Positions 13,851-36,219 of a DNA stretch of 64,000 bases are shown in pieces (position 1 is the first letter of the stretch; each line of letters starts with the position of its first letter). This DNA comes from Hyphomicrobiales bacterium. Lineage in GTDB: Bacteria > Pseudomonadota > Alphaproteobacteria > Rhizobiales > Aestuariivirgaceae. The stretch covers positions 24,376-88,375 of the forward strand of contig JAEUMG010000084.1 of the NCBI GenBank assembly GCA_016793355.1, given 5' to 3'. A program made the translations under genes and the position numbers. Below the pieces are notes generated by a model that saw only the letters and a program-made list of their open reading frames with translations, did no database searches and was not told where the DNA came from.

Positions 13851-13862
13851 TGGCCTTCCACC

Positions 13863-15479
13863 TCAGTTCTTTACGATCTCCGCGAGAGGCAGGTTACAGC
13901 AGGCGCTGTAGCGCACGCCACCAATATCCTTGCGATGGGCGAGTACGAGGTTGGGACTCACGAGCGGAAGAATGATCTTGTCGTCGATCATCTTCATGGC
14001 AAGCGCGCGATAGGCCTCCTCCTGCTGCTCGATCGCGGCGGCAAGCGCCTTGTTGAACAATTCAAGCTCTTCCTTGCCATCGAGCCCTTCTGCCTTGCCG
14101 ACCCCTGCCCGCGTGCCCCACGGCATATTGGGAATCATGCCGAAATACTGGACATACTGGGCACTGCCGAAATAGTCCGGGGCGAAGAAGCCGATCGTAA
14201 AAGGCACCGGCTTGTCGATGTCGGTGACCCAGACGTTGAAGGTTGCAGGCTTGAGCGCAAGCTTCACGTTGATCTTCGCCAAATCCTGCTCGAGCTTCTG
14301 CGCCAGCAACGAGAGATCGATGCCGTAGACGTTCATCGCGGCGAAGGTGAGATCCAGCGTGAAGCCGTCGGCAAGACCGGCCTTTGCCAGAAGCTCCTTG
14401 GCCTTCTCTATGTTTGTCTCCGGATCTGGCAGGTTGGAGGTTCCGGGGAATCCGTTGGGAATGGCCGCCGGCTGCAGTTTTCCCTCGCCGCCCACCGTGA
14501 AGTCGATGGCGCCCTTGTAGTCGATCGCCAACGCAATGGCTTCGCGGACATCGCGCGTCAGGGGAACGGGCGAGCCTTCCGCAACCGGGCTAAAGGCCAC
14601 ATAGACGAAGTTGAAGGACGGGATGGTCTGAAAGACGATATTCGGATCCTGTATGCTTTTGGCAGTATCTGGATCGATCTGCATCGCAATATCGGCCGTG
14701 CCTGATCCCAGCATCTGTGCTTGGGTCACGGCATCGGCCGTCTGCTTCATGATGACGACTGCGGCCGCCGGTTTCGTGCCCCAATAGTTATCATTGCGCT
14801 TGAAGCGCAGATTGTCGTCCGCCTTGTAGCTTTCAAGCGTAAAGGGGCCGCTTCCCGCGGAATTCGACAGGAACCAGGTATCGGAAGTGTCGCTGGTTGC
14901 CGCGTCTTCCGCTGCATTCGCGCCGTTTGCTGAGGCGAGCTTGCTGTTGATGATGCCGGTATAGGGCGCGGAAAGAATGCCGAGGAGTTCCGAATTGGGC
15001 GTCTTGGTGGTGATGACGACAGTATGCGGATCCTTGACCTCGATCGACTTCACGCTGTCCATCAAATAGGAAGCGCTGCCCTTGACGTTCTTCAGCCGCT
15101 CGAGCGTCCACTTGACGTCGTCACCGGTCACAGGACTTCCGTCGGAAAACTTTGCCGCCGGATTGAGGTTGAATGTGAATGTGGTGACATCGGGCGATAC
15201 CTCCCACTTCTCCGCGAGGCTTGGGATGATCGTCTTGTTGTCGGCCGCGAGCGTGAGCAGCGGCTGATAGACCGCCGAAAGATAGATCTGGCAGGTGTCG
15301 CAGTAAGCGCGCGCCGGATCGAGCGAGTTGATGTCCATCGCACGCGCGACGACGATCGTATCGTCCGCGGCTTTGGCTTCTGCACTTATGCCGAGGGTGC
15401 CGACCAGGGCAGCGGCGAGCAGGACGCGAGTAAATTTAGGCTTCAGGCGGAGGAAAACCGAAGGGAGCACGTCAACCAT
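13863..15479 (-). CDS. ABC transporter substrate-binding protein, family 5 (peptide/nickel/opine type)
   Basis: Signal peptide ending AEAKA and family-5 SBP size; start set at ATG 15479 with GGAG 8 nt upstream (ORF reaches 15500 via TTG). Confidence 0.85.
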   Translation of the reverse strand: MVDVLPSVFLRLKPKFTRVLLAAALVGTLGISAEAKAADDTIVVARAMDINSLDPARAYCDTCQIYLSAVYQPLLTLAADNKTIIPSLAEKWEVSPDVTTFTFNLNPAAKFSDGSPVTGDDVKWTLERLKNVKGSASYLMDSVKSIEVKDPHTVVITTKTPNSELLGILSAPYTGIINSKLASANGANAAEDAATSDTSDTWFLSNSAGSGPFTLESYKADDNLRFKRNDNYWGTKPAAAVVIMKQTADAVTQAQMLGSGTADIAMQIDPDTAKSIQDPNIVFQTIPSFNFVYVAFSPVAEGSPVPLTRDVREAIALAIDYKGAIDFTVGGEGKLQPAAIPNGFPGTSNLPDPETNIEKAKELLAKAGLADGFTLDLTFAAMNVYGIDLSLLAQKLEQDLAKINVKLALKPATFNVWVTDIDKPVPFTIGFFAPDYFGSAQYVQYFGMIPNMPWGTRAGVGKAEGLDGKEELELFNKALAAAIEQQEEAYRALAMKMIDDKIILPLVSPNLVLAHRKDIGGVRYSACCNLPLAEIVKN

Positions 15480-15496
15480 CAGAGCATCTCCATGGA

Positions 15497-16753
15497 TCAA
15501 TTGCGGGAAACACCGGCGCTGTTAGTTAGTGAGTCACGAACTGCCCGGAAGCCGTGTTCAGCAGCGTCGAGCGCGCGTTCGATGTCGTTCGTCGTATGGG
15601 CTGCTGACAGAAACATATTGTGCAACGGGTGGAAGTAGATTCCGCGCTTCACGGTTGCCGAGCAGAAGGCGAAGCCCTTGCGGTTGTCGGGGTCGTCCTC
15701 GAAAAGCACCATCGGCATCTGGACAGGTCCGGTCTGGCGTATCGGCAAGCCGTGAGTTTTGCTCAGGGATCCGAGCCCGTCACGTAGCATGCCGCCAAGG
15801 CGCTCCATATGCTCGATCGCATTGTCGCGCCGCAGCGCCGTCAGTGTCGCTACCGCCGCCGCCATCGAGACAGCAGAACACCAGAAAGACCCGGTGGTGA
15901 AGAGCTTGCTCGTCGCATCGCGGAAGCGCTCGTTGCCGGTCACCGCCGCCAGCGCAAAGCCGTTGGCGATCGATTTGCTCCAGGCCGAGAGGTCGGGCCG
16001 AACACCCACAGCTTCCCAGGAGCCGCCAAGGTTGAGCCGGAATCCGGCCCGGACGTCGTCGACGATCAACGCGGCATCCGCGGCGTCGGCCGCCGCACGC
16101 GCAGCCTTCGCAAACTCGCGGGTCGGCAAGCACTGGTCGCGGCCGTAATCGTGCTTGAAGGCGCTGGCAATGATCCCGGCGAGGTCGCCGCGGGCTTGAT
16201 CCGCAGCCCGGTTGAGACTTTCGACGTCGTTATATTCGTACTGGACGATATGCGCCCGATCCTCGGCGGTCACGCCGAGCAGCGATGGCGAGCACCACGG
16301 CACCGCCCCGTGATAGGCACCGCTCGCAACGAGGATTTTGCGCCGGCCCGTACCGGCGCGCGAGATCGTCGCGGCAGTGGTCATAGCGTCGCTGCCGTTC
16401 TTCTGGAACTGCGCCCATGTGGCATGCGGCAGCATCTCGACGAGCAGCTCCGCGAGCTCGACCATGGATTCGCTCGGGCCGTTCAGGCAGTCGCCGCGCG
16501 CGAGCTGCTTCTGCGCTGCTTCGTCAACTTCGGGATGATGATGCCCAAGGATGATCGGGCCCCAGCTGCACATGAAGTCGACGAACTCGTTGCCGTCGAC
16601 ATCCCACAACCGGCTGCCTGAGCCGCGGGCGAAAAACTGCGGATAGCCTTCCGGAAGCGCGGCCGCGTTCATGTGGCCCCACATGCCGCCTGGGACGACT
16701 TTCTTGGCGCGATTGCGCAACTCCGAGTCGAGCGAGTTTACCTGTTTGTCCAT
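15497..16753 (-). CDS. class III (omega/GSA-type) aminotransferase
   Basis: 418 aa resembling glutamate-1-semialdehyde aminomutase-like aminotransferases (GPIILGHHHPEV, GAYHG); first gene of the Dpp-like operon. Confidence 0.85.
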   Translation of the reverse strand: MDKQVNSLDSELRNRAKKVVPGGMWGHMNAAALPEGYPQFFARGSGSRLWDVDGNEFVDFMCSWGPIILGHHHPEVDEAAQKQLARGDCLNGPSESMVELAELLVEMLPHATWAQFQKNGSDAMTTAATISRAGTGRRKILVASGAYHGAVPWCSPSLLGVTAEDRAHIVQYEYNDVESLNRAADQARGDLAGIIASAFKHDYGRDQCLPTREFAKAARAAADAADAALIVDDVRAGFRLNLGGSWEAVGVRPDLSAWSKSIANGFALAAVTGNERFRDATSKLFTTGSFWCSAVSMAAAVATLTALRRDNAIEHMERLGGMLRDGLGSLSKTHGLPIRQTGPVQMPMVLFEDDPDNRKGFAFCSATVKRGIYFHPLHNMFLSAAHTTNDIERALDAAEHGFRAVRDSLTNSAGVSRN

Positions 16754-17176: not shown

Positions 17177-17739
17177 TTACCTGGCCGGCTTGAGACTCGA
17201 CAGCCCTTCGATATTTGTGTCGGGCCTATTGCCCTCGTCTCCCGACAGCGTAACGATTTCGCGCGTTGTTTCCCCGGTCTCCCGATTCACGACCGATTTA
17301 GTGGCTGTTACAGCCACGATCTCATCGCTAAAGCGTCCGGCGGTCTGCGCGGCCGCGGTGCGCTGCTGCGACTGCAGCGCGTAGGCGTCCTGTCTTTCGC
17401 GCGAAATGCCATACCGGCCGGCTACCACTTCCGCGGTATCGATCATGGTCATATAGGCATCGTCACGCACGGCCACGAGTTCGGGATCGACATGCCCGAG
17501 ACTTCGACCGGCTAGCCGGCGCGCAATGCCGCCGTCCGGCCGATCGTGTGCTGCAATCCTTGGGATAGAGCGCAGCCGATGATGCAGTCGTCGATCTCTC
17601 CCGGCTCAACTCCCGAGCGTTCCACTGCGGCGCGAATCGCGTGTGCCGCAAGGGTCGGCGCCGATGTCGCGTTAAAGATGCCGCGATAGGCCCGGCCTAT
17701 CGGAGTCCTCGCCCTAGAAAGGATCAACACATCGCGCAT
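17177..17739 (-). pseudogene. acetyl-CoA acetyltransferase (thiolase) pseudogene: internal ~142-bp deletion plus 3' truncation
   Basis: Two ORF fragments (17512-17829 and 17177-17476) in different frames. They match residues ~1-75 and ~150-250 of the intact thiolase at 29852-31024. The active-site Cys region and the C-terminal third are missing. Confidence 0.8.
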
Positions 17740-17911
17740 CTCAGGCTGCTCCATTGACGGCATTCTCAATTTCGAGCCTACTCTGGCATTTGCCATTTTC
17801 CGGAACGAACTCTCCGGCTCGGTCGACAATCTTCGACCAGGAGGCCGCTATCAATTCAGGCGCGTCGGGTCCATCACCGACGAATAGGCCCGGCGTCAGC
17901 GTCACATGGAC
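17188..17911 (-). repeat. copy A of a duplicated SDR-3'end/thiolase-5' segment (partner 30322-31203)
   Basis: Direct nucleotide alignment by eye; best-conserved ~180 nt roughly 90-95% identical; boundaries approximate. Confidence 0.8.
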
Positions 17912-18619
17912 TGCTTCAAAGGACCCCGCACCGGCGCAAAGAATAGCGCGCGTCGGTGCGTTCTCGCTAACCAGAACCAGCACACCAGGACTCACGCAGC
18001 TGGGCTTCAGCAAGTCGAGTTCCTCCGGTGGCAGGAGGCCCTGTAGCATCTGCGTTGCCGCGGTCGGCGCGATGCAGTTGACGCGGATATTGTTGCGCGC
18101 CCCCTCCAGCGCAAGCGTCTGCATCAAGCCCACCAGCGCCATCTTGGCGGCGCCGTAATTTGACTGGCCGAAATTTCCATAGAGGCCGGACGATGACGTC
18201 GTCATCACGACGCGGCCGTAGTTCTGCGCGCGCATGCAATCCCACACGGCCTTGGTGCAGTTCACGGAACCCATCAGATGCACCTCAACCACCAGCCGGA
18301 AATCGGCAGTATCCATCTTGGCAAATGTCTTGTCGCGGAGAATGCCGGCATTGTTGACCAGGATGTCCACTCTACCCCAGCGCGAAATTGTGTCATCGAC
18401 CATCGCCTGTACGGCATCGAAATCCATAACCGATGCTGCGACCGCAACCGCCCCGCCGCCGACCGCCACGATCTCGGCAGCGACCGCCTCGGCCGCCGCT
18501 TGATCGAGATCATTGGCGACAACGCGCGCGCCGCGCTTCGCAAGCAGCAAGGCGTGCTCGCGGCCAAGACCATTTCCGGCGCCCGTGACGATGGCAACAC
18601 GTCCTGAGAGATCGATCAT
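17741..18619 (-). CDS. SDR family oxidoreductase, HSD17B4/MFE-2-type 3-hydroxyacyl-CoA dehydrogenase-like
   Basis: TGAGNGLG cofactor motif and YGAAK catalytic motif; start at ATG 18619 with AGGAAG upstream. Confidence 0.85.
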   Translation of the reverse strand: MIDLSGRVAIVTGAGNGLGREHALLLAKRGARVVANDLDQAAAEAVAAEIVAVGGGAVAVAASVMDFDAVQAMVDDTISRWGRVDILVNNAGILRDKTFAKMDTADFRLVVEVHLMGSVNCTKAVWDCMRAQNYGRVVMTTSSSGLYGNFGQSNYGAAKMALVGLMQTLALEGARNNIRVNCIAPTAATQMLQGLLPPEELDLLKPSCVSPGVLVLVSENAPTRAILCAGAGSFEAVHVTLTPGLFVGDGPDAPELIAASWSKIVDRAGEFVPENGKCQSRLEIENAVNGAA

Positions 18620-18694
18620 CAAGTTTCTTCCTTCTGGACGTGGGATCGCCAAGCTTGCGGAGACGACCCGAGGCCAAATGCGTGCTGTGGGTTT

Positions 18695-21361
18695 CTAGAA
18701 AACTGGATCGCGCTTGGCGCGGAACGCTGCAAGTCCCTTGGCGAGATCGCTACCCCTGATATGCTCCGCGAAGCTCTCCAGTTCGGCACGGATGCGTGCC
18801 GCGCGTGCGGTGCTTTGATTGGCTGGACGGGTCAACGCCTTGATCTGTCGAATGGCTTCCGGGCTTCGCCGGCAAATATCGTGGGCTATCTGCATTACTC
18901 TTTCCGTGAGACGTTCCCTTGGCACAACCTCGTTGACCAGGCCCCACTCCATAAGTGTCTCCGCTTCGACGAGAGTTCCAGTGTAGAAAAGCTGGGCGGC
19001 ATGCGATGGTTTTATTCGCTCGGCGAGCCTCACGGTCGCCCCGCCGGCAGGGACGATACCGTATTTGGCATGCCCATCGCCGATCTTCACACCTTCCACG
19101 GCGATGATCAGGTCACAGGCGAGGAGGAGTTCCAGGCCGCCGGCAACCGCTACGCCGTTTACAGCGCCGATGACCGGCACCGGCATGTCCTCGACCATCT
19201 GGATGACGTCCTGGTTGTGGCGCAGTGTGTCGATCAGCTTCGTCCCGCCGGCCTTCAGCATCATCTCGAATTCGATTAGGTCGCCACCCGCGCAGAAGGC
19301 ACGCCCGGCACCGGACAGGATCACGACGCGCAATCCCGGTAGATCCGCGACAGCACGGAGCCGGCGTTCGAGCGAATGCATCATCGCCTCGGAAGCCGCG
19401 TTCAGACTTTCGGGCCGGTCGAGCGTCAGGATGGCGACGCCGTTCTCAAATTCGAGCCGAACGGACTCTGCAGCCTGCTCGACGCTGCCCCGCACGAGAT
19501 AGGTCTGCGGCAGCGGCTTCAGGGTCTCTTCCAGTTCTGCGATCTGGCTATCCGCTGCACCTAAGAGCACGACCTCGACAAGCGTCCGCTTGCGCCCGTC
19601 CGTCGCGATATCGATCGTTGCCGATACGCTCCTACCGCAGATCCGTTCCGCCTCGAGCCGGACTTTCTCCTTGATCGCCAGGTCGCGGAGAGCCGGCTTG
19701 AAAATCTTGCCAACGGCGGTCACCGGAAGAGCGTCGATGATCAGAACACTCCTCGGTCGCGCGGGCGGTTCATGGACATTGGCTTCCAGATGGGCCTTCA
19801 GCGCCTCGAGATTTATCTGCGAGCCTGGCGCCGGCACGACGAAGAGCGTCGGGACTTCGCCGGCATATTGGTCCGGCATGCCGACGGCTGCACTGATTTG
19901 CACGCCGGGAAAATGGTTCGCCACGTCCTCGATCGCGGCCGGATCGATATTGTGGCCGCTCCTGATAATCAGGTCCTTCTCGCGCCCTGTGAGCGCGAGC
20001 CTTTCGTCATCGGTCAGGTATCCGACGTCGCCGGTCGTCAGCCAGCCATCATCGGCGAGCGTGCCGATATTGTGAACGGGATCGACATAGCCGGGAAAGA
20101 CCTGCGGCCCGCGCACCTGCACAAGACCGGTTTCGCCCGGCGCGCAGGGCGCATTGTTGTCGACGCCAAGCCGGACGATCCGCGTTTGCGAGAATGGTGC
20201 GCGAAAGCCGACGCTTCCCGCAAGCGGGGTGCCCCGGCCGGGATTGAAGGCGATGGCCGCCGCCGTCTCGGTCATCCCGTAGGTCTCGAACAGGCGTATT
20301 CCGGTCGCCGTTTCAAATCTTTCGCCGACCGCCTTTGGCAACACCGCGCCGCCGGTTACGGCCATCCTCACTGTGGACACGTCGGCCCCTGGCCTCCAGC
20401 TGTTTGTGAGCGCCGCAATCGAAGTAGGCACACCGCCGACGACCGTGGCGCCAAAATGCTCGACCAATTGCCAATAGGCATCGAGGACGGCCGGCGGCCG
20501 CAAGCCCCAGGGAGACGGCACGAGAACGTGACCGCCCGCCGCGAGCACGGATAGCCCGACCGTCATCGTCCCGCCGACATGGAAGAAAGGGAAACCGTTG
20601 ATAACGATGTCGTGCTCGTCGTATCCGAACACCTGCGCGAAGCCGAAGGCGGCATGGATCTGGTTGCCGTGGGTGAGCTGCACGAGCTTCGGCTGACCCG
20701 TCGTGCCGCCGGTGTGGAACAGCGCACATACCGTATCGCGATCCGCCGACGGTTCGAAGTCGAGCCCATCGGTCCGGCTTTGAGCCAGTGCCTCCTCGAG
20801 GTTCCGATATCCTCGGCGTCCCTCGCCGTCTCCGCCGATGACAAATACGTCGGTCAGCGTCGGCACCTGCGCGAGCACGCTCTCCGCCTTCGCCCAGCAG
20901 GTCTCATCCAGCGACCGTGCCGGGACAACGAGTATTGTCGCCTTTTCGGCGTTCAGAAGATCAATGATCGCGTCGCGGCTCAACAGGTAGTTCAGCGAAC
21001 TCGCAACGCCCGCCACCTGTGCTCCAAGCAGCAATGCCGGAACTGCCGGCAGCGTCGGCGACAGGAAAGCGACCATGCCATTTCCCGGCGAAGCGCCGAG
21101 CTTGCGGAACATGTTTGCGGCACAGGTGATCTGGGCGAGAAGCTGGCGATGGGTGAGTGCGACACCGATATCCACTGGGTCTGGCGAGCGCAGCACCGTC
21201 AGGGCCTTGCGGTCGCCGCCGTACCGCGCAGTCGCCAGGAACAAATCATAGAGATTGCGCGCGGTGACCAACTCGTCATAGGGCAGGCTCTCGATTGCGA
21301 CGATATCTTCGATCGTTCGCACGTCGATGACCGGACGCGTGGTCTTGAGCACGCGCTCCAT
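18695..21361 (-). CDS. acyl-CoA synthetase (AMP-binding) fused to a crotonase/enoyl-CoA hydratase-isomerase family domain
   Basis: Start at MERVLKTT (ATG 21361, 1-nt overlap with the upstream stop). Contains AMP motif LFHTGGTTGQPK and TGDVGY. The C-terminal ~265 aa carry FCAGGDL and AGGLELLLACD crotonase motifs. Confidence 0.8.
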   Translation of the reverse strand: MERVLKTTRPVIDVRTIEDIVAIESLPYDELVTARNLYDLFLATARYGGDRKALTVLRSPDPVDIGVALTHRQLLAQITCAANMFRKLGASPGNGMVAFLSPTLPAVPALLLGAQVAGVASSLNYLLSRDAIIDLLNAEKATILVVPARSLDETCWAKAESVLAQVPTLTDVFVIGGDGEGRRGYRNLEEALAQSRTDGLDFEPSADRDTVCALFHTGGTTGQPKLVQLTHGNQIHAAFGFAQVFGYDEHDIVINGFPFFHVGGTMTVGLSVLAAGGHVLVPSPWGLRPPAVLDAYWQLVEHFGATVVGGVPTSIAALTNSWRPGADVSTVRMAVTGGAVLPKAVGERFETATGIRLFETYGMTETAAAIAFNPGRGTPLAGSVGFRAPFSQTRIVRLGVDNNAPCAPGETGLVQVRGPQVFPGYVDPVHNIGTLADDGWLTTGDVGYLTDDERLALTGREKDLIIRSGHNIDPAAIEDVANHFPGVQISAAVGMPDQYAGEVPTLFVVPAPGSQINLEALKAHLEANVHEPPARPRSVLIIDALPVTAVGKIFKPALRDLAIKEKVRLEAERICGRSVSATIDIATDGRKRTLVEVVLLGAADSQIAELEETLKPLPQTYLVRGSVEQAAESVRLEFENGVAILTLDRPESLNAASEAMMHSLERRLRAVADLPGLRVVILSGAGRAFCAGGDLIEFEMMLKAGGTKLIDTLRHNQDVIQMVEDMPVPVIGAVNGVAVAGGLELLLACDLIIAVEGVKIGDGHAKYGIVPAGGATVRLAERIKPSHAAQLFYTGTLVEAETLMEWGLVNEVVPRERLTERVMQIAHDICRRSPEAIRQIKALTRPANQSTARAARIRAELESFAEHIRGSDLAKGLAAFRAKRDPVF

Positions 21362-22857
21362 CAGTGGACCGCGGCGTACATGATGGTTTCCTCGTCGGCC
21401 TTGTGGCCTTCGAACTCTTCGACGATCCGGCCCTGCCGGCATACCAGAATGCGATCGGAGAGTTGCAGAACCTCCGGCAAATAGGACGAGATCACCATCA
21501 CCGCGATGCCCTGGTCCGCGAGATGGTTGATAAGCTGGTGGATTTCGGCGATTGCGCCAACGTCGACTCCGCGGGTCGGCTCGTCGAAGATGATCAGCTT
21601 CGGCTTCTGCACCAGCGCCTTGGCGACCACAACCTTCTGCTGATTGCCGCCGGACAATTCGATAACGCGCGCATCGGCGTTGATGGTCTTGACGTTCAAT
21701 CGCGCGACCCATTCGTTCGCCATCGCTCGCATCTCGCGCATGCTGACGATGGCAGACTTCGCCTGCCCGCCGGCCATGGCCGCGAGATAGATATTCTCGG
21801 CGATCGACATAGTCTCGAAGAAGCCTTCGATCTTGCGGTCCTCGGTCACATAGATGATGCCGTCGCGAACCGCCGAGCGGGGTACCCGATAGCGCACTGG
21901 TCGGCCATTGAGGCGTATCTGGCCGCCATGGAAGAGATCGCGCTTCAAAACGCCGGCGACGACCTTTGCCGCCTCGGTGCGACCTGAGCCGATAAGACCG
22001 AAGATGCAGGTGATCTGCGCCGCAAAGACCGAGAAGGATGTGTTGCGCACCATATTGCCCATGGAGAGATTCTGCACGCTCAGAACCTTTTCACCGGCCG
22101 GGCGCACGCTGCGGTCCTTGTTCGATCCGTATAGTTCGCCGGTGAGCGTGCGGCCCACCATGGCGCGCACGATCTTCTCGCGGTCGAAGGCCGCCGTAAC
22201 CTCGGTCACCACATGCTCGCCGTCGCGCATCACGGTGATGCGGTCGGCGATGGCGAGCGCCTCCTCCAGGGCGTGGCTGATGAAGATGATCGAGACGCCG
22301 CGCTGTTTCAGGCGTTTGACGAGCGAGAAGAACTGGTGCTTTTCCTCGGGCGTGAGTGTCGCCGTCGGCTCGTCGAAAATGATCACCTGGGCATTGTGGT
22401 GCACCGCGCGTGCGATCTCGACCATCTGCTTCTGGCCGGCGCCAAGGCTCGACACCATCGCGGTCGGATCGACGGGAAAGTTGAGCGACTGGAGGAACTG
22501 CTGGCCGGCTATGTAGATGCCGCGCAATCTGTGGAAGCGCTTGTTGTCGGTGAGATAGATGTTCTGCGCGACGGTAAGCGAAGGCACGAGACTGGTCTCC
22601 TGGTAGACCATAGCAATGCCGCGCTTCAGCGCTTCAGACGGCGAGCGAAATTCGGCCCTTGCCCCGTTTATCCAAATCTCGCCGGTGGTGGGCTGGACGA
22701 CTCCGGCGATCATCTTGGTCAATGTCGACTTGCCAGCGCCGTTCTCGCCGAGCAATGCATGTACCTCGCCGCGATGAAGCGTGAAGGACACGTCCTTTAC
22801 CGCCGCGACACCGCGATATTCTTTCGTCGCTTTGCGGATATCGACGATCGGCGTCAC
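21361..22857 (-). CDS. sugar (CUT2, RbsA-like) ABC transporter ATP-binding protein, tandem NBD
   Basis: 498 aa; Walker [10 protein letters not shown] plus degenerate second GLIGSGRTE; GTG start overlapping the upstream stop (GTGA). Confidence 0.9.
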
Positions 22858-23933
22858 GCTTCGGCTCCTCCGAGAGGCGTGACGGGAAGCGACACGACGA
22901 CGCCGTCGCCACAGGCCGCAATGAAAACCTGTCCATCATGCTCGGCAACACTAGTCACGCCATGCGTCCGGCCGTCCGCGCGGCTGTGCAGGCTGGCACG
23001 CGGCTGAAACGCCCGGTCGAGCTTCACGCAAAGGCCGGCCGACATTGTCGGCGCCCACGGCTTGAGCAAGCCCAGATGCTTCACGCCGCCGCCCTGCAGC
23101 GACTCGCAAAAGCTGCGGCCGGATCGGAGTTTCGGCGCCACCCAAAATGCTTGCGGCACCTCGGCCATCATGCGCCTGCGGTAGGCGGACTCGCGCAAGA
23201 CGAATTCGACGAGTTGGCTGCGCGGCGCAAAAAGCGCCAGCCAATAACCATCCGTGGCGGGAGCGATCCGGCCCGGATAGGCCGGGAGGTCGGCGTAGAG
23301 CACCTTGAATCCTCTTTGATCGATCCTGACAAGCTGGTGCTTCCAAGCCTCGGAGAAGACCGGTCCTTCGGCGTCCGGGGCAAGGCCGGCCGGCCAGGCG
23401 AGACCATCGGCGAGCCGGGTGAATGTCCCGCTTTCGAGGTCGAGGCGCCAGACACTGCCGGAAGCATTGCGCTCAAGAAGATCGCGCTGCCAGTCAGCAG
23501 GGCCATTCTTCGCCGAACCATTGGCGATGTAGAGTTCGGAGTCTGTGCCGGCCATCGCGGTCATGCACGCAAGCGGTTGGGCGGGCTTGTAGCGGCGCCC
23601 GCCAAAGCAGCCACCTTCGATGACGATCTCGCCAGTGGCGAGTGCTATGGCGAGACATTCTTTGCCGATCGCGGCCAGACACAGGATTTCCGCATCGTAT
23701 TCGCTACGTTTATGCCATCGGCCTTGATCGAAGCGATGGATCGCTCTTCCCGAAGACGCCAGGACTTCGCTCGAAACCATTGCAAGACTGTCGACGCCGG
23801 CAAGCGGGAAGCGCGCCGCAGCCTCATCGAGCGCACGGTTCGGCCTGAATGCTCCGTCGAGCGGCGGCACGGTGACCGCAGCTTCTCCGCGGCCGAACAG
23901 ATTGTCGAAGGCGCGGGAGAATTCGACGATCAT
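22854..23933 (-). CDS. strictosidine synthase-like / SMP-30-like beta-propeller protein (free paralogue)
   Basis: 359 aa from [27 protein letters not shown] and [12 protein letters not shown] parallel LPGYPDNINRASDGSYWLAL and FAETWACRVSRY of the fused domain upstream. ATGA overlap at 23930-23933. Confidence 0.7.
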
Positions 23934-26044
23934 GCCCGGCCCCAGTAGGACCGCTGTCCTGTCCAACCGGCATCGACGCCCGCGAGTTTCAGCCGGCCGA
24001 CGCGGTTGTTCAGGATGCCACCGATATAGAGATACCCCTTGTGCTCCCGCATGGAGGTGATCATCGGATGATTTTCGCCACCAAGATCCCACAGCGTTTC
24101 AATGATGCGGCCGGTCTCGTCAAAGCGCAGCACGCAACCTGTATTGATGTTAGGATACATCCACTCGTCCGGCGCAATTCGTCGTGCCATGCGCTTGCGA
24201 AAGCCCGGCATCTTTAGCGCCAAATCGAGGGCCGGCGTCCGCATGCCGACCAGTGCCAGCCAGTAGCTACCGTCAGAAGCGCGGTTGATGTTGTCGGGAT
24301 AGCCCGGCAAGTCGGCGATCACCGTTTCGACCTGCCTCTGCTTCGGCCCATCGAACCAATAGCGGCTGACGCGGCAGGCCCAGGTCTCTGCGAACAGGAA
24401 CGATTGGCCATCGAGAGTCATGCAGATGCCATTCGGGAAGAGGAGATTCTTCAATACCGTGCGCGTCACACCGGTGCTCGGGTTGAAGCAGATGATGCGG
24501 CCATTGCCACGCGATTCCAGGCAGTCGACCGGCCATTCGTGCATCTCATAGCGGATAGTCGCCTCGCTGAAGAAGACGCGCCCATCGGGCGCGATGTCGA
24601 GATCGTCGGCAAGCCGCAATCGCGAATCGTCGATAACCGAAAACCAGGAGCGATTCGTCTCATCGGTGAGCTTCTCAATCTTGCGGTCGCGCGTGATGCG
24701 ATAGAGACCCATGCCACCGATGCAGCAGAGCAGCGAGCCATCGCGAGCGAACGCCATGCCGAGCGGCCGGCCACCCACATGGGCGAAGACCTCCTGCCGC
24801 GAATAGTCGGGTGCATGGAAGCGCACGATGTCGCCGGTGCGGTTGCCGGCATAGATGTTGTCGTCCTCGTCGAGAATGACGTCTTCCGGCCCGTCGATGC
24901 GGTTAAGTCCGATCGCCTCGACCGGCCGCAATCGGTCATTCAGTGCATATGGCGATTCTCCCTCCGTTGCCGGTGCGGGCGGCAGTTCTGCATAGGTTGG
25001 CGACACGTAGACCTTCGAGAGAAGCTTGTGCCGGTTCTTCAGCCAGCGCACGTCAATTGCGACCGCCGCCAGAAGAATAATGCCGAGCAGTAGCGAACTG
25101 CCTCCTCTAGTGATGCCCAGACGCACCAGACCGTTGACCATGATCATGACGATGATTGAGCCCATGATCGCCTTGGCCGCGGAGCCGCGACCGCCGCCGA
25201 GGCTGTTTCCGCCCAGCACTGCGGCGGTCAGGGCAGCGATTTCAAGCCCAACCCCGGTATCGGCGCCCGCGCCGCCCAGTCGCGATGCGAAGAGCAGGCC
25301 TGCAAGTGCACTCAGCGTTCCCGACACGACATAGGTTGCACAGATGACGCGGCGCACCGAAATGCCGACATTATGCGCCGAGCGCCGCGAGCCGCCAGTT
25401 GCGAGCACATGCCAGCCGGCGCGCGACCGCGTCAATACGAGGTGAGCAACAATGGCGACGATCGCGGCGACGACGACGCTAAACGGAAGTCCCAGGACAT
25501 ATCCCTCGCCGAGATAGTACCAGAAATCGGAATCAACGAATGCGGCGGCGATCGCGACGGAATATTTCAAGAGCAGCATGTCGACCACTGCCCTGACGAT
25601 AATCAGTGTGACCAGCGTGGTGAGGAAAGCGCGCAGGCGCAGATAGCCGACGAGCAGTCCGTTCACCAGGCCGACCGCCGCGCCGCAGGCCAGCGTGCCC
25701 ACGATGACCGCCGCCACGGGCCACTCGGCCACATTGAGCAGAGCGAGCGCGACGATGTTGCCGAGTGCGAAGGTGGACCCGACGCTCAAATCGATGCCGC
25801 CCGCCACCATCACGATCATCAGCGCCAGGACGATCAAGGCGAACTCGCCCCATTGCCGCATCAGGCTGGAGATGCTTGCTGGGCCGAAGAAATCGGGAAT
25901 CAGCGACCCGAATACGAGGGCGACCGCGAGAAGGATGAGCAGCGGGATCGCGTTGTCGACCCAGCGCTTGGTCAGGATCTCGCCAAGGAGGTGATCGGGC
26001 ACGTAGCGGTAGCGCCAGCGTGTAATCCTGTCTGATACAGCCAT
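23930..26044 (-). CDS. CUT2 ABC permease (RbsC-like) fused to a C-terminal strictosidine synthase-like beta-propeller
   Basis: Residues ~1-348 are a polytopic RbsC-type permease ending in RWLKNRHK. Residues ~376-711 carry GRPLGMAF, NGRIICFNPSTG, LLFPNGICMTLDGQSFLFAETW and LPGYPDNI motifs of the SSL/APMAP family. Start uncertain (ATG 26044 or TTG 26065). Confidence 0.8.
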   Translation of the reverse strand: MAVSDRITRWRYRYVPDHLLGEILTKRWVDNAIPLLILLAVALVFGSLIPDFFGPASISSLMRQWGEFALIVLALMIVMVAGGIDLSVGSTFALGNIVALALLNVAEWPVAAVIVGTLACGAAVGLVNGLLVGYLRLRAFLTTLVTLIIVRAVVDMLLLKYSVAIAAAFVDSDFWYYLGEGYVLGLPFSVVVAAIVAIVAHLVLTRSRAGWHVLATGGSRRSAHNVGISVRRVICATYVVSGTLSALAGLLFASRLGGAGADTGVGLEIAALTAAVLGGNSLGGGRGSAAKAIMGSIIVMIMVNGLVRLGITRGGSSLLLGIILLAAVAIDVRWLKNRHKLLSKVYVSPTYAELPPAPATEGESPYALNDRLRPVEAIGLNRIDGPEDVILDEDDNIYAGNRTGDIVRFHAPDYSRQEVFAHVGGRPLGMAFARDGSLLCCIGGMGLYRITRDRKIEKLTDETNRSWFSVIDDSRLRLADDLDIAPDGRVFFSEATIRYEMHEWPVDCLESRGNGRIICFNPSTGVTRTVLKNLLFPNGICMTLDGQSFLFAETWACRVSRYWFDGPKQRQVETVIADLPGYPDNINRASDGSYWLALVGMRTPALDLALKMPGFRKRMARRIAPDEWMYPNINTGCVLRFDETGRIIETLWDLGGENHPMITSMREHKGYLYIGGILNNRVGRLKLAGVDAGWTGQRSYWGRA

Positions 26045-26071
26045 TTCTTTCTGCTCGGATCGCAAATGCGG

Positions 26072-26095
26072 CGCGGGCGGCTTTCGCCGCCCGCG
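26072..26095 (-). promoter_or_regulatory. intercistronic GC-rich stem-loop (9-bp perfect stem, 6-nt loop)
   Basis: CGCGGGCGG-CTTTCG-CCGCCCGCG located between the SBP stop (26109) and the next permease start; no U-tract. Confidence 0.35.
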
Positions 26096-26108
26096 TCCTG
26101 GCGGAGGA

Positions 26109-27107
26109 CTACTTCTTCGCCGGCAGATCCCAACACGACGCTGGCGTCATGTTGTCCTTCGTCAGGAAGGTCAGCGGCGTGAACAATGTTGTCTTGGTCG
26201 TGCCCGCCGGCTGCTTCAATTGCAGCAATTGTTTGATCATGGTCGCCATGTCGCGGGCCTGGCCCGGAACGAAGTAGACAACCACTTCGGAATAAGTGCC
26301 ATTGGCGAGACCGTCACAGGCCATTCGGTTGCCGCCGCCCTGGGTGAGCAGGTAGACGTTCTTGCCGGACTCCTTGATCGCCGCCGCCGTGCCGACGTCC
26401 ATGACGTCCCAGAAGCCGGTAATGGCGCAGAGGTCCGGGTTCTGCTGGATAACGGTCGCCGCGATGTTCTTGGCCTTGGTCGCATCCCAGTCCGCTGCCT
26501 GGTTCGAGACAAGCTGAATTTCGGGGTGCTTCGACAGGACATTGCTGATGCCCTGCATCTGGTAGATGCTCGCCGCTGCCGTCAGCACGCCCTGGGTGAT
26601 CGCCACCTTGCCGCTGCCGCCATTGGCGGGTGAGCATACGTCGACTAGCCGTTGTCCGATCTTTTCGCCCATGCCGACATAATCAGCGCCGACGAAGACA
26701 TCGGTCGAGTAACTGGAGCGCATGTTGACTTGCACGACATAGATGCCCGCTTCCTCGGCCTTCTTAAGCAATCGCGCGTAGGACTGGACGTCTGGATTGT
26801 GCACGACGATCACATCGGGTTTTTCGGAGATGAGCGACGTGATCGCCTGAGCGCCGGCATCGGTGCTCCAATTGGGATCGCGGATATCGAAGGTGACGCC
26901 AAGCGGTTCCAGCGCCTCCTTGAGGCCGGCGGCCCAGCCCTCGGTCAGATCGAATCCCATGGCCACAGGTACATAGGCCACCTTTTTGCCGATGAACGAT
27001 TCGTAGTACGGCGCACGCGTCGGGTCGTCGATACCTTCCTGCGCCACCGCGACGCCAGTCGATAGAGTAAGAGCCGCGGCGATTATACTTGTCTTGATCA
27101 GCTTCAT
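26109..27107 (-). CDS. periplasmic sugar-binding protein, ribose/CUT2 type
   Basis: 332 aa; signal peptide MKLIKTSIIAAALTLSTGVAVAQ; strong GGAGGAG Shine-Dalgarno sequence; Peripla_BP_1/4-like sequence. Confidence 0.9.
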   Translation of the reverse strand: MKLIKTSIIAAALTLSTGVAVAQEGIDDPTRAPYYESFIGKKVAYVPVAMGFDLTEGWAAGLKEALEPLGVTFDIRDPNWSTDAGAQAITSLISEKPDVIVVHNPDVQSYARLLKKAEEAGIYVVQVNMRSSYSTDVFVGADYVGMGEKIGQRLVDVCSPANGGSGKVAITQGVLTAAASIYQMQGISNVLSKHPEIQLVSNQAADWDATKAKNIAATVIQQNPDLCAITGFWDVMDVGTAAAIKESGKNVYLLTQGGGNRMACDGLANGTYSEVVVYFVPGQARDMATMIKQLLQLKQPAGTTKTTLFTPLTFLTKDNMTPASCWDLPAKK

Positions 27108-27132
27108 GTTTCTCCTCCCATTGAGAACAAGT

Positions 27133-28107
27133 CTAGATGTCCCCCTGTTGAGCGGTCTGCTCGTCGCGGGGGTTAAGGATCGTGTCGATCATGATCGCGG
27201 TTAGTAGGATGATGCCCTTGATGACATTCTGGACGGTGTACTGGATGTCCATGATCGTCATTCCGTTGAGCAGAACGCCGATGAGCAGTGTGCCGACGAT
27301 AACGTTGCGGATATTGCCTTTGCCGCCGGAAAGACCGATGCCGCCCAGCACGACGACCAGGATCACGTCATAGACGTAGGTCGAGATGGCGAGGCGTGTA
27401 TTCATGCTCGCCACCGAACCGGCAGTGACGATGCCGGCAATGTAGCCGATGAGCGACGAAAGGACATATTGCAGGACGATGATCGGGCGCGCGGGCACGC
27501 CGGCTACCCGCGCAGCGAGGAGATTATCCCCGATTGCGCGCAAGTAACGGCCTGAGCGCGCATAGCGCAGAAATAGGTACCCGACCAGGCAGACGACTGC
27601 GAAGACGAAGATCGGCACCGGAATGCCGAAGAGCTTTCCCTGGCCGAGCCACAGGATCTGCAGCGCCGAGTCGGGCATGTAGACGACGTCGAGATCAAAG
27701 AGGAAGTAGCGGCCAAAGCCATAGACCAGCGTGCCCATGGCGAGCGTCGCAAAAATCGCAGGCACCTCGACATAGCCGACCAGCCATCCGTTTACCGCGC
27801 CGATGAACAGGCTGAAGACGAGTCCGATGGCAAGAGCTTCTGCCAACGGCATGTCACGCCCGATCAAGGACAGCGTCCAGGCCACAGACACGGCCATCAG
27901 CGAGACCAGCGAAAGGTCGATGCCACGGCCGATCACCACCAGGCCCATCGCTACGCCGAGGATTCCCAGGATGGAAACGCTGCGCACGAGGTTCAGGATG
28001 TTGTCGGCGGTCAGGAATCCAGGCAGCGCAACCGCAAATAGAATGCACAACAACAACGCCAGACCGAAGACGATCCGCTCCTGGCTCAGACCGGCGAAGA
28101 CCTGCAT
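27133..28107 (-). CDS. CUT2 ABC permease (RbsC-like)
   Basis: Polytopic membrane ORF; ATG 28107 preceded by GGGAGGGGG. Confidence 0.85.
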   Translation of the reverse strand: MQVFAGLSQERIVFGLALLLCILFAVALPGFLTADNILNLVRSVSILGILGVAMGLVVIGRGIDLSLVSLMAVSVAWTLSLIGRDMPLAEALAIGLVFSLFIGAVNGWLVGYVEVPAIFATLAMGTLVYGFGRYFLFDLDVVYMPDSALQILWLGQGKLFGIPVPIFVFAVVCLVGYLFLRYARSGRYLRAIGDNLLAARVAGVPARPIIVLQYVLSSLIGYIAGIVTAGSVASMNTRLAISTYVYDVILVVVLGGIGLSGGKGNIRNVIVGTLLIGVLLNGMTIMDIQYTVQNVIKGIILLTAIMIDTILNPRDEQTAQQGDI

Positions 28108-28356
28108 CCTGCCCCCTCCCATGGGCCAAGCACATCAACCTCGAGGTCGATGGCGGGAGAGGGAGACTATCCGGGCTGCCCGCGAAACTCTTTTCCGATG
28201 GCGCAGTAGTCTTGCCTGAGCGTGCAGTACTTGCTCCGCAGCAGGTATATGGGCTAGTAATTGCGGGTCCCAGAGGTTGAAGCCGTGAGCGAGACGATCG
28301 AGTTTCGCCTGAAAAATGGCCGGCTCGGGACCTGTGACCACGGGTGGGAGGAGCCC

Positions 28357-29301
28357 ATGGATCTCGTCTTCTCAACGGACGACTATGTTCAGTCCGAACG
28401 CTACAACGCTTGGCGTGACGCCATCTGCGACGTCTATGTGCATGTCGACGTCGCGGCGGTCGATCCGGAGCGGTATCGCGGCTTTATCCGGGAGGCCAAG
28501 TTCGGCGAAGTGGTGCTCACCGACATCCTCCTGTCGGAGCAACGCATCAGGCGCAACAACCAGCACATCTCCAAACTGGATAAGGACTGTTACTATCTGC
28601 AGCTTCTGCACAAGGGCAGCGTAAGCGTCCTTCAGCGCGGCGAGACACACCGGTCGAACCCGGCGCGCGGCGCGATCTTCTCTGCAACCGAGGAGTATGA
28701 GCTCTATCCCCAAGGTGAAGTGCGCTCGTTTTATCTCGAGCTCCCGCGCGATGAGTTCGCGCATCGCTTTCCTCGCGAGCGGATTCCGGTGTCGGCATCG
28801 CTCAACACCGCACAAGGGCTCGGGCGCATTGCCACCGAATTCTGCGCTTCGCTCGCCACAGAAGGCTCGAAGCTTGACGCCCCCTTGCGCGCCGGCCTCG
28901 GTAACCAGTTGATGGATATGCTTGCCTTCGCGCTGCTGACGTCGGAAGGCGATATGCCTGCGGCCGAAGGTTCGGTGAAGAAGGCGCGTCTCATGCACGT
29001 GCAGCAATGGATCGAGGCGCATATCAGGGACGCCGATCTCACACTCGAGAAGGTCGCCAGCGCCAATGGCATGTCGCTTCGCTATCTGCACGCCCTGTTC
29101 GAGGGCTGCGAGATGTCGGTTTCCGAGTGGATCTGGAACCGCCGCTTGCAACTCGCCTATGACAGCCTCGCAAGAGGCGGTGGGCGTTCAATCACTTCGA
29201 TCGCGTTCGATCATGGCTTCAACAGTTCGGCGCATTTCAGCACGATGTTCAAACGCAAATATGGGCTGTCGCCCAGAGATGTGGCCCGGCATATGCCGTA
29301 A
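28357..29301 (+). CDS. AraC family transcriptional regulator (AraC_binding_2-type N-terminal domain)
   Basis: C-terminal double HTH (LEKVASANGMSLRYLHALF; IAFDHGFNSSAHFSTMFKRKYGLSPRD); start at ATG 28357 (MDLVFSTDDY). Confidence 0.85.
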   Translation: MDLVFSTDDYVQSERYNAWRDAICDVYVHVDVAAVDPERYRGFIREAKFGEVVLTDILLSEQRIRRNNQHISKLDKDCYYLQLLHKGSVSVLQRGETHRSNPARGAIFSATEEYELYPQGEVRSFYLELPRDEFAHRFPRERIPVSASLNTAQGLGRIATEFCASLATEGSKLDAPLRAGLGNQLMDMLAFALLTSEGDMPAAEGSVKKARLMHVQQWIEAHIRDADLTLEKVASANGMSLRYLHALFEGCEMSVSEWIWNRRLQLAYDSLARGGGRSITSIAFDHGFNSSAHFSTMFKRKYGLSPRDVARHMP

Positions 29302-29851: not shown

Positions 29852-31024
29852 TCAGAGCACCTCGAACAGGCCGGCTGCGCCCATGCCGCCCCCGACGCAC
29901 ATCGTGATCACCACATGCCGGACGCCGCGCCGCCTGCCTTCGATAAGAGCGTGGCCGACCATGCGTGCGCCCGACATCCCGTAGGGATGGCCTATCGATA
30001 TCGCGCCGCCATTGACGTTAAGCAGCTCATTGGGAATGCCAAGCCTGTCCCGGCAGTAGATTACCTGGACGGCGAATGCCTCGTTGAGTTCCCAAAGTCC
30101 AATATCGTCCATTGCCAGACCGAAGCGCTGCAAAAGCTTGGGCACGGCAAAGACCGGGCCGATTCCCATTTCATCCGGCCTGGTGCCGGCGACCGCCATG
30201 CCCACATAGCGGCCGAGCGGTCGAAGCCCCTTCCTTTCGGCGATGCCTGCCTCCATCAGGATGCAAGCGGCCGCGCCGTCCGAAAGCTGGCTGGCATTGC
30301 CCGCCGTGATATTTCCCCTCTCCCTGACCGGTTTAAGGTTCGATAGCCCTGCAAGGCTGGTGTCGGGCCTGTTGCCTTCATCGGCCGACAGCGTGACGGT
30401 CTCGCGCGTTGATTCCCCGGTTTGCCGATTCACGACCGATTTTGTGGCTGTCACAGCCACGATCTCATCGCGAAAGCGCCCCGCGGTCTGCGCGGCCGCG
30501 GTGCGCTGCTGCGACTGCAGCGCATAGGCGTCCTGTCTTTCGCGCGAAATGCCATACCGGCCGGCGACCACTTCCGCGGTATCGATCATGGCCATATAGG
30601 CATCGTCATGCATGTCCACGAGTTCGGGATCGGCATGGGTGCGCAATTCAGGCGTCTGCACGTGCGAGATCGACTCGACCCCACCCGCCAGAACGATGTC
30701 CATGCGGTCCACGATAATCTGCTTTGCAGCCGTTGCGATGGCCATCATGCCCGAGGAGCATTGGCGATCGATCGTCATGCCCGAGACTTCGACCGGCAAG
30801 CCGGCGCGCAATGCCGCCGTCCGGCCGATGGTGTGCTGCGATCCTTGGGGTAGAGCGCAGCCGATGATGCAGTCGTCGATCTCTCCCGGCTCAACTCCCG
30901 CGCGTTCCACCGCGGCGCGAATCGCGTAGGCCGCAAGGGTCGGCGCCGATGTCGCGTTAAAGGCGCCGCGATAGGCCCGGCCGATCGGGGTCCTCGCCGT
31001 AGAAACGATCACAGCATCACGCAT
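29852..31024 (-). CDS. acetyl-CoA C-acetyltransferase / 3-ketoacyl-CoA thiolase
   Basis: 390 aa from [20 protein letters not shown]; active-site [38 protein letters not shown]. Confidence 0.9.
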
Positions 31025-31203
31025 CTCAACCTGCTCCCTTCTCGGCATTCCCGACTTCGGGTCTGCCCTCTCTCTTGCCACCGTGCGGGACGGGCAATCC
31101 GGCCCGGTCGACAATCTCCGACCATGAGGCCAAGATCAACTCGGGCAGGTCGATTCCGTCGCCCGAGGGTCTGCCCGGTATCGGCAATTAGCGTCACATG
31201 GAC
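30322..31203 (-). repeat. copy B of the duplicated SDR-3'end/thiolase-5' segment (partner 17188-17911)
   Basis: Nucleotide alignment by eye; same CATCTCA stop/start junction as copy A. Confidence 0.8.
31026..31203 (-). pseudogene. degenerate remnant of the SDR 3' end
   Basis: Aligns at nucleotide level (more diverged than the thiolase part) with 17741-17911, the C-terminal ~57 codons of the intact SDR; no upstream SDR body present. Confidence 0.55.
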
Positions 31204-31255
31204 CCGCTGAAGGTATTTGTGCTTATGGCTTTATCCGGAACATGGCGATGCGGAT

Positions 31256-32382: not shown

Positions 32383-32386
32383 AGAC

Positions 32387-33571: not shown

Positions 33572-33605
33572 CCCTATTCCGCGAGGCGTCGCTTTGCCGG
33601 CAATC

Positions 33606-33968: not shown

Positions 33969-33971
33969 GAC

Positions 33972-34319: not shown

Positions 34320-34490
34320 GCGTTCTCCCTGCACATGCTCCGCACGACTCGGCGGGCCGGAGCAAGATAGCGTCAATCCGGCTCAGTCTCACCCCCGCTT
34401 CGACAGACAGCATTGACCGGCACGCAGCCGCTATTGCCCGGCCGGGAATGGCAGGGATGCCGAATTCCGATGGGGATGGAGCGGCGGCCG

Positions 34491-35240: not shown

Positions 35241-35252
35241 GCAGCCTGCTTA

Positions 35253-36209: not shown

Positions 36210-36219
36210 TGCGGAACTC

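Follow-up and report, generated by a model that had tools for sequence, protein, structure and literature searches.

Introduction

ATP-binding cassette (ABC) importers of the CUT2 type, such as RbsABC, AraFGH, XylFGH and LsrACDB of Escherichia coli, have an architecture in common with a transport cassette that we describe here from a Hyphomicrobiales bacterium of the Aestuariivirgaceae. The cassette lies in an operon, with an adjacent regulator gene, at positions 17177-29301 of a 64,000-nucleotide stretch of contig JAEUMG010000084.1 (GenBank assembly GCA_016793355.1, forward-strand positions 24,376 to 88,375), hereafter called the window. One of its two permeases carries a propeller domain that has its fold, its Pfam families and a four-residue metal-site pattern in common with TGW6 (of the SSL family), PON1, SMP30/gluconolactonase, Drp35 and DFPase. 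TGW6 is a hydrolase of the glucose ester of indole-3-acetic acid (IAA) (PMC10958001), and its residues E59, N167, N226 and N272 sit where DFPase, gluconolactonase and Drp35 have their calcium site (PMC10958001; PMC7084539). Pseudomonas putida's Lva operon and mammalian ACAD10/ACAD11 follow a like logic, in which an acid is converted to a coenzyme A (CoA) thioester and then to a beta-oxidation intermediate. Vectorial acylation by FadL/FadD and group translocation by the phosphotransferase system (PTS) offer a like principle, the coupling of uptake to trapping chemistry, and the beta-oxidative side-chain shortening of hydroxycinnamates uses the same four enzyme types as this operon encodes, with no acyl-CoA dehydrogenase.

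The system described here is real, widely conserved and uncharacterised, and in an unusual architecture it brings an ABC importer together with a propeller hydrolase and with enzymes of the beta-oxidation type. The original prediction, made from the window alone, described eight minus-strand genes that it could not match to any characterised pathway; no characterised orthologue was found, and no publication describing the system came up when the full-text literature was searched for the cassette or the combination of its genes. We infer, with about as much confidence as doubt, that the importer takes up a lactone or another ester, which would be hydrolysed at the transporter and then trapped as a CoA thioester.

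Conservation of the Cassette

Open reading frame (ORF) scanning together with Pfam and NCBIfam profile scans of the window placed the eight minus-strand genes, and the divergent AraC-type gene, where they had been predicted. The four predicted junction strings, ATGA, GTGA, TGATG and TGAGATG, are exact on the coding strand, and no sugar kinase, isomerase or dehydrogenase is present in the operon, as had also been stated. In a scan of one genome per species, relatives of the permease::propeller fusion were detected in at least 191 species, and about 80 loci were fetched. The order of the cassette genes is constant (permease, binding protein, permease::propeller fusion, free propeller and tandem ATPase), and wherever the contig of a fetched locus spans the cassette, tblastn and ORF clustering found it intact. 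Among database clusters, 120 from Hyphomicrobiales, Rhodobacterales and Acetobacteraceae have the fusion at 79-100% identity. The taxa comprise Alpha- and Betaproteobacteria, Syntrophobacteraceae and acidobacterial/eremiobacterial metagenome-assembled genomes (MAGs); in Burkholderiales, Syntrophobacteraceae and these MAGs the cassettes are found at 60-64% identity. Culturable carriers include Aquibium carbonis B2.3, Mesorhizobium sp. CAU 1741, Sulfitobacter alexandrii AM1-D1, Chelatococcus reniformis and Pantoea sp. At-9b. What had been proposed as a local "hybrid" operon is instead a widespread module.

Within an alphaproteobacterial clade of about 35 species, in which the fusion is at least 72% identical, a divergent AraC-type gene, an acyl-CoA synthetase and a crotonase-fold protein of the enoyl-CoA hydratase family (ECH) are always present. 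The clade synthetase, 58-84% identical, lies directly 3' of the ATPase gene, with which it overlaps by 1 nt (TGATG) in 21 of 35 loci and from which it is separated by no more than a few nucleotides in the others. The clade crotonase (47-82% identical; seen by tblastn in about 30 loci) is either fused to the synthetase or encoded by a separate gene of about 260 aa. Outside this clade, Ramlibacter has the same synthetase-ECH pair upstream of the cassette, Syntrophobacteraceae have an ECH and a family-I CoA-transferase downstream of it, several lineages and a Paraburkholderia plasmid have single or double family-III CoA-transferases, and Burkholderiales loci have an unrelated AMP-binding ORF with a TetR N-terminus upstream. 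AMP-binding ORFs account for 46 of the 494 ORFs within 4 kb of the cassette versus 2 of 363 farther away. A ligase or CoA-transferase was found within 4 kb in at least 52 of 81 loci, which is an underestimate because some loci are mis-called or truncated. The linkage of transporter, propeller and CoA genes on which the original prediction depended is therefore kept in about 35 species, with CoA enzymes linked independently elsewhere, and this conservation pattern marks transporter, propeller pair and CoA genes as a genuine conserved functional unit.

Several of the fetched loci have features of their own. The TetR/AMP-binding ORF is uninterrupted at 758-783 aa, with TetR_N, TetR_C_24 and AMP-binding domains, at L071:577-2886 and also in loci L047, L058, L063, L068, L069, L076 and L081; this represents a fusion of regulator and ligase, or else two genes with no in-frame stop between them. 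A second, diverged whole cassette occurs in tandem or nearby in L021, L025, L027, L042 and L052, which suggests paralogous systems for related substrates. An amidase-signature gene (PF01425) stands beside the cassette or the synthetase-ECH pair in L012 (17494-18906), L047, L048 and L058.

The Importer and Its Binding Protein

The CUT2 architecture is complete, with two BPD_transp_2 permeases, an ATPase with two tandem nucleotide-binding domains (NBDs) and a Peripla_BP_4 binding protein, all of which score above the Pfam cut-offs. The first permease, which is RbsC-like and 324 aa long, is encoded at 27133-28107 on the minus strand; its longest ORF extends to 28122, and alignment with orthologues places the true start at the ATG at 28107, behind GGGAGG. 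The periplasmic binding protein, which has a signal peptide, follows at 26109-27107 (minus strand), and the RbsA/AraG-like ATPase lies at 21361-22857 (minus strand), with Walker A in NBD1 and LSGG in NBD2. None of these proteins reaches the NCBIfam cut-off of a named sugar system: the permease scores 166 bits versus 398, the binding protein 73 versus 335 and the ATPase 473 versus 689.

To the residues of E. coli ribose-binding protein (RBP; sequence verified against 1urp) we aligned 67 orthologues of the binding protein. The monosaccharide-ligand residues of RBP are replaced across all of them. N13, F15 and N64 of RBP correspond to F52, L54 and H103; D89 and R90 to N128 and M129; R141 to Q or T at position 183; F164 and N190 to W207 and W233; D215 to S or Q at position 256; and Q235 to D or F at position 279. 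The alignment suggests, with moderate confidence, that the pocket is aromatic and hydrophobic and has lost the charged residues that bind sugar hydroxyls. The doubt about sugar import expressed in the original prediction is borne out, in that the sugar ligands are replaced and no sugar-catabolic gene is conserved with the cassette; judged from these sequences, the system is probably not a sugar importer.

The Fused and Free Propellers

The gene for the second permease (23930-26044, minus strand) encodes a BPD_transp_2 domain followed by SSL_N, Str_synth and SGL matches. Its ORF spans 23930-26065 (711 aa), and the orthologues begin at M8, which gives a protein of 704 aa whose C-terminal residues, approximately 343-704, constitute a six-bladed propeller of the strictosidine-synthase-like (SSL) kind. 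The fused domain scores 76.2 bits with Str_synth (cut-off, 25), 54.2 with SGL and 47.5 with SSL_N, and by sequence the PDB offers only rice TGW6 (8kg3, E = 3e-21) and strictosidine synthases from plants as relatives. In a HMMER alignment, D480, N538 and N585 of the fusion stand opposite N167, N226 and N272 of TGW6, so that the N167 position is an Asp in the fused propeller, and E387 comes from a GPED motif. The putative metal ligands E387, D480, N538 and N585, and likewise D481 and D584, show no variation in 85 of 85 fusion sequences. L478, W504 and F536 of the fusion match the indole subpocket of TGW6, and all three are conserved. By these residues the fused propeller looks catalytic and putatively metal-binding. 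An assignment as a Pictet-Spenglerase was rejected because the catalytic Glu309 of strictosidine synthase is not conserved: it aligns with the invariant Thr663, in a second aligned stretch that is weaker.

The free six-bladed propeller (359 aa; 22854-23933, minus strand) has no Pfam match above the cut-off, Str_synth reaching 17.3 bits versus 25 (E = 0.0055). Its AlphaFold model has a pLDDT of 82.7 and a pTM of 0.84, and the top Foldseek matches of this model are strictosidine synthases and TGW6 (E about 1e-13, TM 0.70), so the label of free propeller given in the original prediction was right. BLASTP aligns it to the fused domain with 27% identity over 150 residues (E = 2e-17), and a helical insertion is common to both; by this homology the free and fused propellers are paralogues. 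No metal site is left in the free one, because the ligand positions are replaced in 78 of 78 sequences, with A, F or Y at the N538 position and G/S-R/H at D584-N585. Hence, of the two hydrolytic propellers originally proposed, the fused one keeps its metal ligands, whereas the free one does not.

Conservation in the free propeller is highest in a loop at 277-300, E..Q-G-G..K..G..K-P-W-A-P..S.G, which is invariant across classes; E277, Q280, G288, K291-P-W-A-P295, S298 and G300 are invariant or nearly so in 78 of 78 free propellers. The region of this loop, residues 267-296, is the sole internal part of the model with a pLDDT below 50. A conserved loop for which disorder is predicted in the monomer suggests an interaction surface. 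We infer that both propellers are cytoplasmic, because the fusion has no transmembrane segment after residue 332 by hydropathy and a run of basic residues after its last membrane helix, and the free propeller has no signal peptide.

CoA Enzymes Encoded Downstream

The gene directly after the ATPase (18695-21361, minus strand) encodes an 888-aa fusion of an acyl-CoA synthetase and a crotonase-fold domain (AMP-binding plus ECH_1). The synthetase, residues 1 to approximately 625, has AMP-binding and AMP-binding_C domains and is PRK07529-like (547.8 bits versus a cut-off of 632). It has no close solved relative, the best being feruloyl-CoA synthetase (8wev) and a fatty-acyl-CoA synthase at approximately 1e-48. 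The crotonase-fold domain, approximately 626-888, scores 172.7 bits with ECH_1 and retains the first catalytic Glu (E744), whereas the second is His764, within an invariant D762-G-H764, in 30 of 30 sequences. Its reaction is uncertain because of this replacement; the crotonase step of the original prediction thus stands as regards the fold, but simple hydration is not assured. Identity with hydroxycinnamoyl-CoA hydratase-lyase (HCHL) was rejected, since HCHL ranks low and has the opposite Glu pattern. Functional transfer from distant plasmid homologues of the synthetase (31-40% identity) was likewise set aside, as their contexts are unrelated, save that of Variovorax, which has a canonical ECH. 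In Variovorax paradoxus VAI-C (L087, CP063167.1 517-522 kb), a tripartite-tricarboxylate binding protein, a synthetase 39% identical, an ECH and a tannase/feruloyl-esterase-family hydrolase stand in a row. A penicillin-acylase-family gene lies nearby, the ECH is canonical, and the esterase-ligase-crotonase logic is analogous with different parts.

The next gene, a short-chain dehydrogenase/reductase (SDR; 17741-18619, minus strand), has an ORF of 17741-18652, with the ATG at 18619 as the likely start by orthologue alignment. Its best solved relatives, 2et6 (1.5e-112), 3oml, 1gz6 and 1zbq, agree with the MFE-2-type label that it had been given, and the TGxxxGxG and YxxxK motifs are present. The protein is clearly of the MFE-2 (3R)-hydroxyacyl-CoA dehydrogenase type by sequence, and R-specificity is predicted.

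The decayed operon thiolase (17177-17739, minus strand) and the intact copy (29852-31024, minus strand) both lie where they had been placed. Recognised by Pfam, tblastn and blastn, the operon copy is a pseudogene: it survives as two thiolase_N fragment ORFs (17512-17829 and 17177-17476), has an in-frame stop, lacks residues of approximately 86-129, which include the catalytic Cys region, and ends after approximately residue 236. The deleted segment corresponds to 30638-30769 of the intact copy, and the 3' loss amounts to about 470 nt. By tblastn and blastn, the two copies are 82-87% identical in protein and 89% in DNA. The 56 nt 5' of the intact ATG (31025-31080) match the 3' end of the SDR gene (17741-17795) with 89% identity. 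Because this homology passes the intact ATG, the SDR-thiolase junction must have been duplicated before the operon copy decayed. The intact thiolase may supply the activity in trans.

Regulation

The AraC/XylS-type regulator (AraC_binding_2 plus HTH_18, 314 aa) is encoded on the plus strand at 28357-29301. Its longest ORF begins at 28261, and the ribosome-binding site and orthologue lengths point to the ATG at 28357 as the start. It reaches 133 bits with the FeaR model of NCBIfam, versus a cut-off of 199. A divergent orthologue with 53-95% identity occurs in about 35 loci, and the intergenic regions between the AraC and permease genes (36 sequences) have a block in common, TGCRC-N6-RMAA-N6-TGCR-N9-AAG, followed by TAnnnT. 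This candidate operator, at 28190-28226 on the minus strand in the window, comprises two direct repeats about 21 bp apart, immediately 5' of the -10-like TAnnnT; it has the look of two XylS/AraC-type direct repeats overlapping the -35 region. No further copy was found in the window, and since the sole match is that at 28190-28226, the intact thiolase gene is not assignable to the regulon.

No terminator-like site above chance was found within the operon, and one such site lies just past the thiolase remnant (17127-17110). Directly 3' of the binding-protein stop codon, in the interval before the fusion gene (26066-26108, minus strand), folding energy identifies a GC-rich stem-loop, GCGGGCGGC-GAAA-GCCGCCCGC (-33 kcal/mol, z = -3.8 versus shuffles). 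This intercistronic structure may be a stabiliser or attenuator that raises the output of binding protein.

Kinase and Dehydrogenase Neighbours

Hydrolysis of gamma-lactones yields 4-hydroxy acids. In Pseudomonas, an APH-family kinase and an ACAD10/11-type enzyme (LvaA/LvaC) phosphorylate 4-hydroxyacyl-CoA and eliminate phosphate to give 2-enoyl-CoA (PMC11342911). In Sulfitobacter alexandrii (L002), the cassette ends a co-directional overlapping string of genes for an APH-family kinase, a small ORF, an AMP-binding ligase, an acyl-CoA dehydrogenase (ACAD) and DUF7064/7065 proteins. This dehydrogenase is ACAD11-like, with 425 bits to ACAD11 (8v3u) versus about 135 bits to ordinary ACADs. A Sulfotelmatobacter MAG (L051) has DUF7064/7065, an APH kinase and DUF6285 directly 3' of the ATPase gene, and no ACAD was found on that contig. 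In Chelatococcus reniformis (L066), genes for an ACAD and an APH kinase run divergently from that of the first permease; assignment of this ACAD to the ACAD11 subfamily was attempted and gave an ambiguous result. By analogy, these APH/ACAD neighbours resemble the 4-hydroxyacyl-CoA kinase/eliminase pair. On a Paracoccaceae plasmid, genes for alcohol and aldehyde dehydrogenases come after the cassette and fadA, fadB and ACAD genes flank it, an arrangement that fits hydroxy-acid oxidation.

Other Features of the Window

A separate minus-strand cluster at 5218-9864 brings together genes for an Amidohydro_2 protein, an SMP-30/gluconolactonase that stands alone (6097-7035), a regulator of the LuxR/GerE type and a protein resembling acid-sugar kinases (SBD_N/NBD_C); next to it, at 9961-16753, are a dipeptide-type ABC system and a class-III aminotransferase. 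On the plus strand at 31217-36392, there are four co-directional ORFs, of which one has a weak HPr-kinase-C match (E = 0.0014) and another matches PF14907 ("uncharacterised nucleotidyltransferase"); no Pfam match was obtained for the remaining two, which are 258 and 659 aa long. Rfam and tRNA scans of the window gave no matches. Megablast of the window against a plasmid collection returned partial matches at about 70-75% identity and very short segments of 50-59 nt; the window does not derive from a sequenced plasmid in that collection.

Proposed Mechanism and Alternatives

In the proposed mechanism, the binding protein would capture, in the periplasm, a lactone or other ester that is small and largely hydrophobic, and the importer would carry it into the cytoplasm. 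There the permease-tethered propeller, a metal-dependent enzyme of the PON/SMP30/TGW6 type, would cleave the ester bond at the transporter exit, with the free, non-catalytic propeller as its structural or regulatory partner. The released (hydroxy)acid would at once be converted to its CoA thioester by the translationally coupled synthetase, and the crotonase-fold domain would process the thioester. In this genome, the R-specific MFE-2-type dehydrogenase and a thiolase may finish one beta-oxidation-like round; the operon copy being dead, the thiolase would be the paralogue about 11 kb away, beyond the AraC gene. As regards the beta-oxidation round of the original prediction, the synthetase and crotonase are conserved, whereas the SDR and thiolase are lineage-specific extras.

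A more specific version of this mechanism, which is possible although on the unlikely side, is that the importer feeds the ring opening of gamma-lactones or alpha,beta-unsaturated lactones of the butenolide, pyranone or coumarin type and that the ligase traps the acid, which would otherwise re-lactonise, in a new CoA-dependent route. An alpha,beta-unsaturated lactone would open to a (Z)-hydroxy-2-enoic acid, and the resulting cis-2-enoyl-CoA would be hydrated to a (3R)-alcohol for MFE-2-type oxidation, so that an acyl-CoA dehydrogenase would not be needed. Crotonases have been reported to hydrate cis-2-enoyl-CoA to (R)-3-hydroxyacyl-CoA (PMC13126070). An R-specific SDR beside a crotonase, with no acyl-CoA dehydrogenase, might be explained in this way, because the opened lactone would give a cis-enoyl-CoA. 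If the lactone version were true, the route would be widespread in soil, freshwater and marine Proteobacteria.

Several points weigh against the proposed mechanism or parts of it. TGW6 was found without a bound metal, and its substrate is not a lactone but a sugar ester of the indole-acetyl type. That the propeller lies in the cytoplasm is predicted from hydropathy and the positive-inside rule; an AlphaFold model of the whole 704-aa fusion, built from a shallow alignment, was poor (pLDDT 50.6, pTM 0.41), gave a rough count of about 10 helices and was not used for topology or packing. The inference about the binding pocket depends on an alignment with RBP at about 25% identity, for which reason our confidence in the loss of the sugar ligands is moderate. 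The His-variant crotonase may not be a hydratase. An SDR gene lies near the operon only in the window and in L003, L004, L013 and L041, and an intact operon thiolase only in L041, the copy in the window being dead. The window has no APH or ACAD11-like gene, and APH neighbours occur in just 3 of about 85 loci. Finally, the flanking genes in many lineages are housekeeping or unrelated genes.

Among the other explanations, one is that the substrate is an aromatic acyl ester or conjugate, such as an indole-3-acetyl or hydroxycinnamoyl compound, from which a TGW6-like reaction releases an aromatic acid for CoA ligation and beta-oxidative or retro-aldol shortening. The best solved match of the fused propeller is TGW6, an IAA-glucose hydrolase (PMC10958001), the positions of its indole subpocket (L478, W504 and F536) are conserved, the binding-protein pocket appears aromatic and the regulator is FeaR-like. 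The best solved relative of the synthetase is feruloyl-CoA synthetase (8wev), and a synthetase, hydratase, dehydrogenase and thiolase with no acyl-CoA dehydrogenase form the set for a cinnamate-type acid; the Variovorax paradoxus row of binding protein, synthetase (39%), ECH and tannase/feruloyl-esterase points the same way. However, a glycosyl ester is unlikely because the binding protein has no sugar-hydroxyl ligands, the crotonase is not of the HCHL type, its Glu pattern being opposite, and the Variovorax ECH is canonical, unlike that of the window. Moreover, the linkage to APH kinases, accompanied in one lineage by an ACAD11-like enzyme, points to aliphatic 4-hydroxy acids, and ring-cleavage or benzoyl-CoA genes are not conserved near the cassette. 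We consider an aromatic ester rather improbable on balance. That the system is an ordinary importer of sugars or aldonolactones with a gluconolactonase-type domain, the CoA genes being mere neighbours, would agree with the best NCBIfam matches of the permeases, ATPase and binding protein, which are ribose, arabinose, xylose and allose systems, with the SGL match in Pfam, and with Pantoea and Paracoccus plasmid cassettes near sugar genes and a D-arabinono-1,4-lactone oxidase. All the named sugar-system matches fall far under the curated cut-offs, though, and the replacement of the sugar-ligand residues in the 67 orthologues also argues for another substrate. The ATPase/synthetase overlap is conserved, CoA-activating genes have been recruited repeatedly and independently, and neither a sugar kinase nor an isomerase or dehydratase is conserved with the cassette, which makes an ordinary sugar importer quite unlikely.

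The propellers might also be non-enzymatic, serving as cytoplasmic regulatory or scaffolding domains for substrate sensing, trans-inhibition or synthetase docking. Regulatory C-terminal domains are known in ABC importers, and the free propeller, which lacks metal ligands and has an invariant loop that is predicted to be disordered, as is typical of an interaction surface, would suit such a role; but the conservation of putative metal ligands and pocket in 85 of 85 fused domains over large phylogenetic distances is the pattern of an active enzyme, and a non-enzymatic role for both propellers is very unlikely. Least probable of all is degradation of acyl-homoserine lactones (AHLs), in which the propeller would open the ring in a PON-like manner and the acyl chain would enter beta-oxidation. 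PON-type propellers are AHL lactonases, an amidase gene lies beside the cassette or the synthetase-ECH pair in four loci, and the binding-protein pocket appears hydrophobic. It is generally assumed, however, that AHLs pass into cells without any transporter; the main clade lacks a conserved amidase or acylase, the window has neither, and without amide cleavage the synthetase would have no fatty acid to activate. This explanation is accordingly given hardly any weight.

Should import followed by hydrolysis and CoA trapping be the right reading, the system would be an ABC importer with a catalytic domain inside a membrane subunit, a design that was not found in the searchable literature, and transport-coupled hydrolysis would join group translocation and vectorial acylation as a mode of uptake. 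It would give a function to a sharply delimited family, encoded within the cassette and made up of 256 clusters when grouped at 50% identity and of more than 3000 at 90%, that is labelled only "hypothetical" or "strictosidine synthase". It would also provide an unrecognised route for lactones or esters, compounds that plants, algae and microbes commonly produce. With the ligand identified, the binding protein, operator and AraC-type regulator could be a ready-made biosensor.

Comparison with Known Systems

Compared with the CUT2 importers, the cassette differs in that one permease carries a 360-residue propeller and that a fifth, propeller-only subunit gene is obligatory; its sugar ligands are replaced, the equivalog cut-offs are missed and CoA enzymes are encoded downstream. 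The domain differs from the described propeller hydrolases in being covalently fused to an ABC permease, predicted to be cytoplasmic and accompanied by a paralogue that is degenerate. A dedicated importer for lactones and a lactonase are both missing from the Lva system, whereas the clade to which the window belongs has no kinase or ACAD11-like gene and has a PRK07529-like synthetase and a His-variant crotonase instead. Unlike the hydroxycinnamate pathway, the window has an atypical hydratase site, an R-specific MFE-2-type dehydrogenase and no aromatic downstream genes, and its dehydrogenase and thiolase are not conserved with the cassette. With respect to FadL/FadD and the PTS, the proteins and the chemistry are different, and the cassette would achieve its coupling of uptake to trapping through a tethered hydrolase and a translationally coupled ligase.

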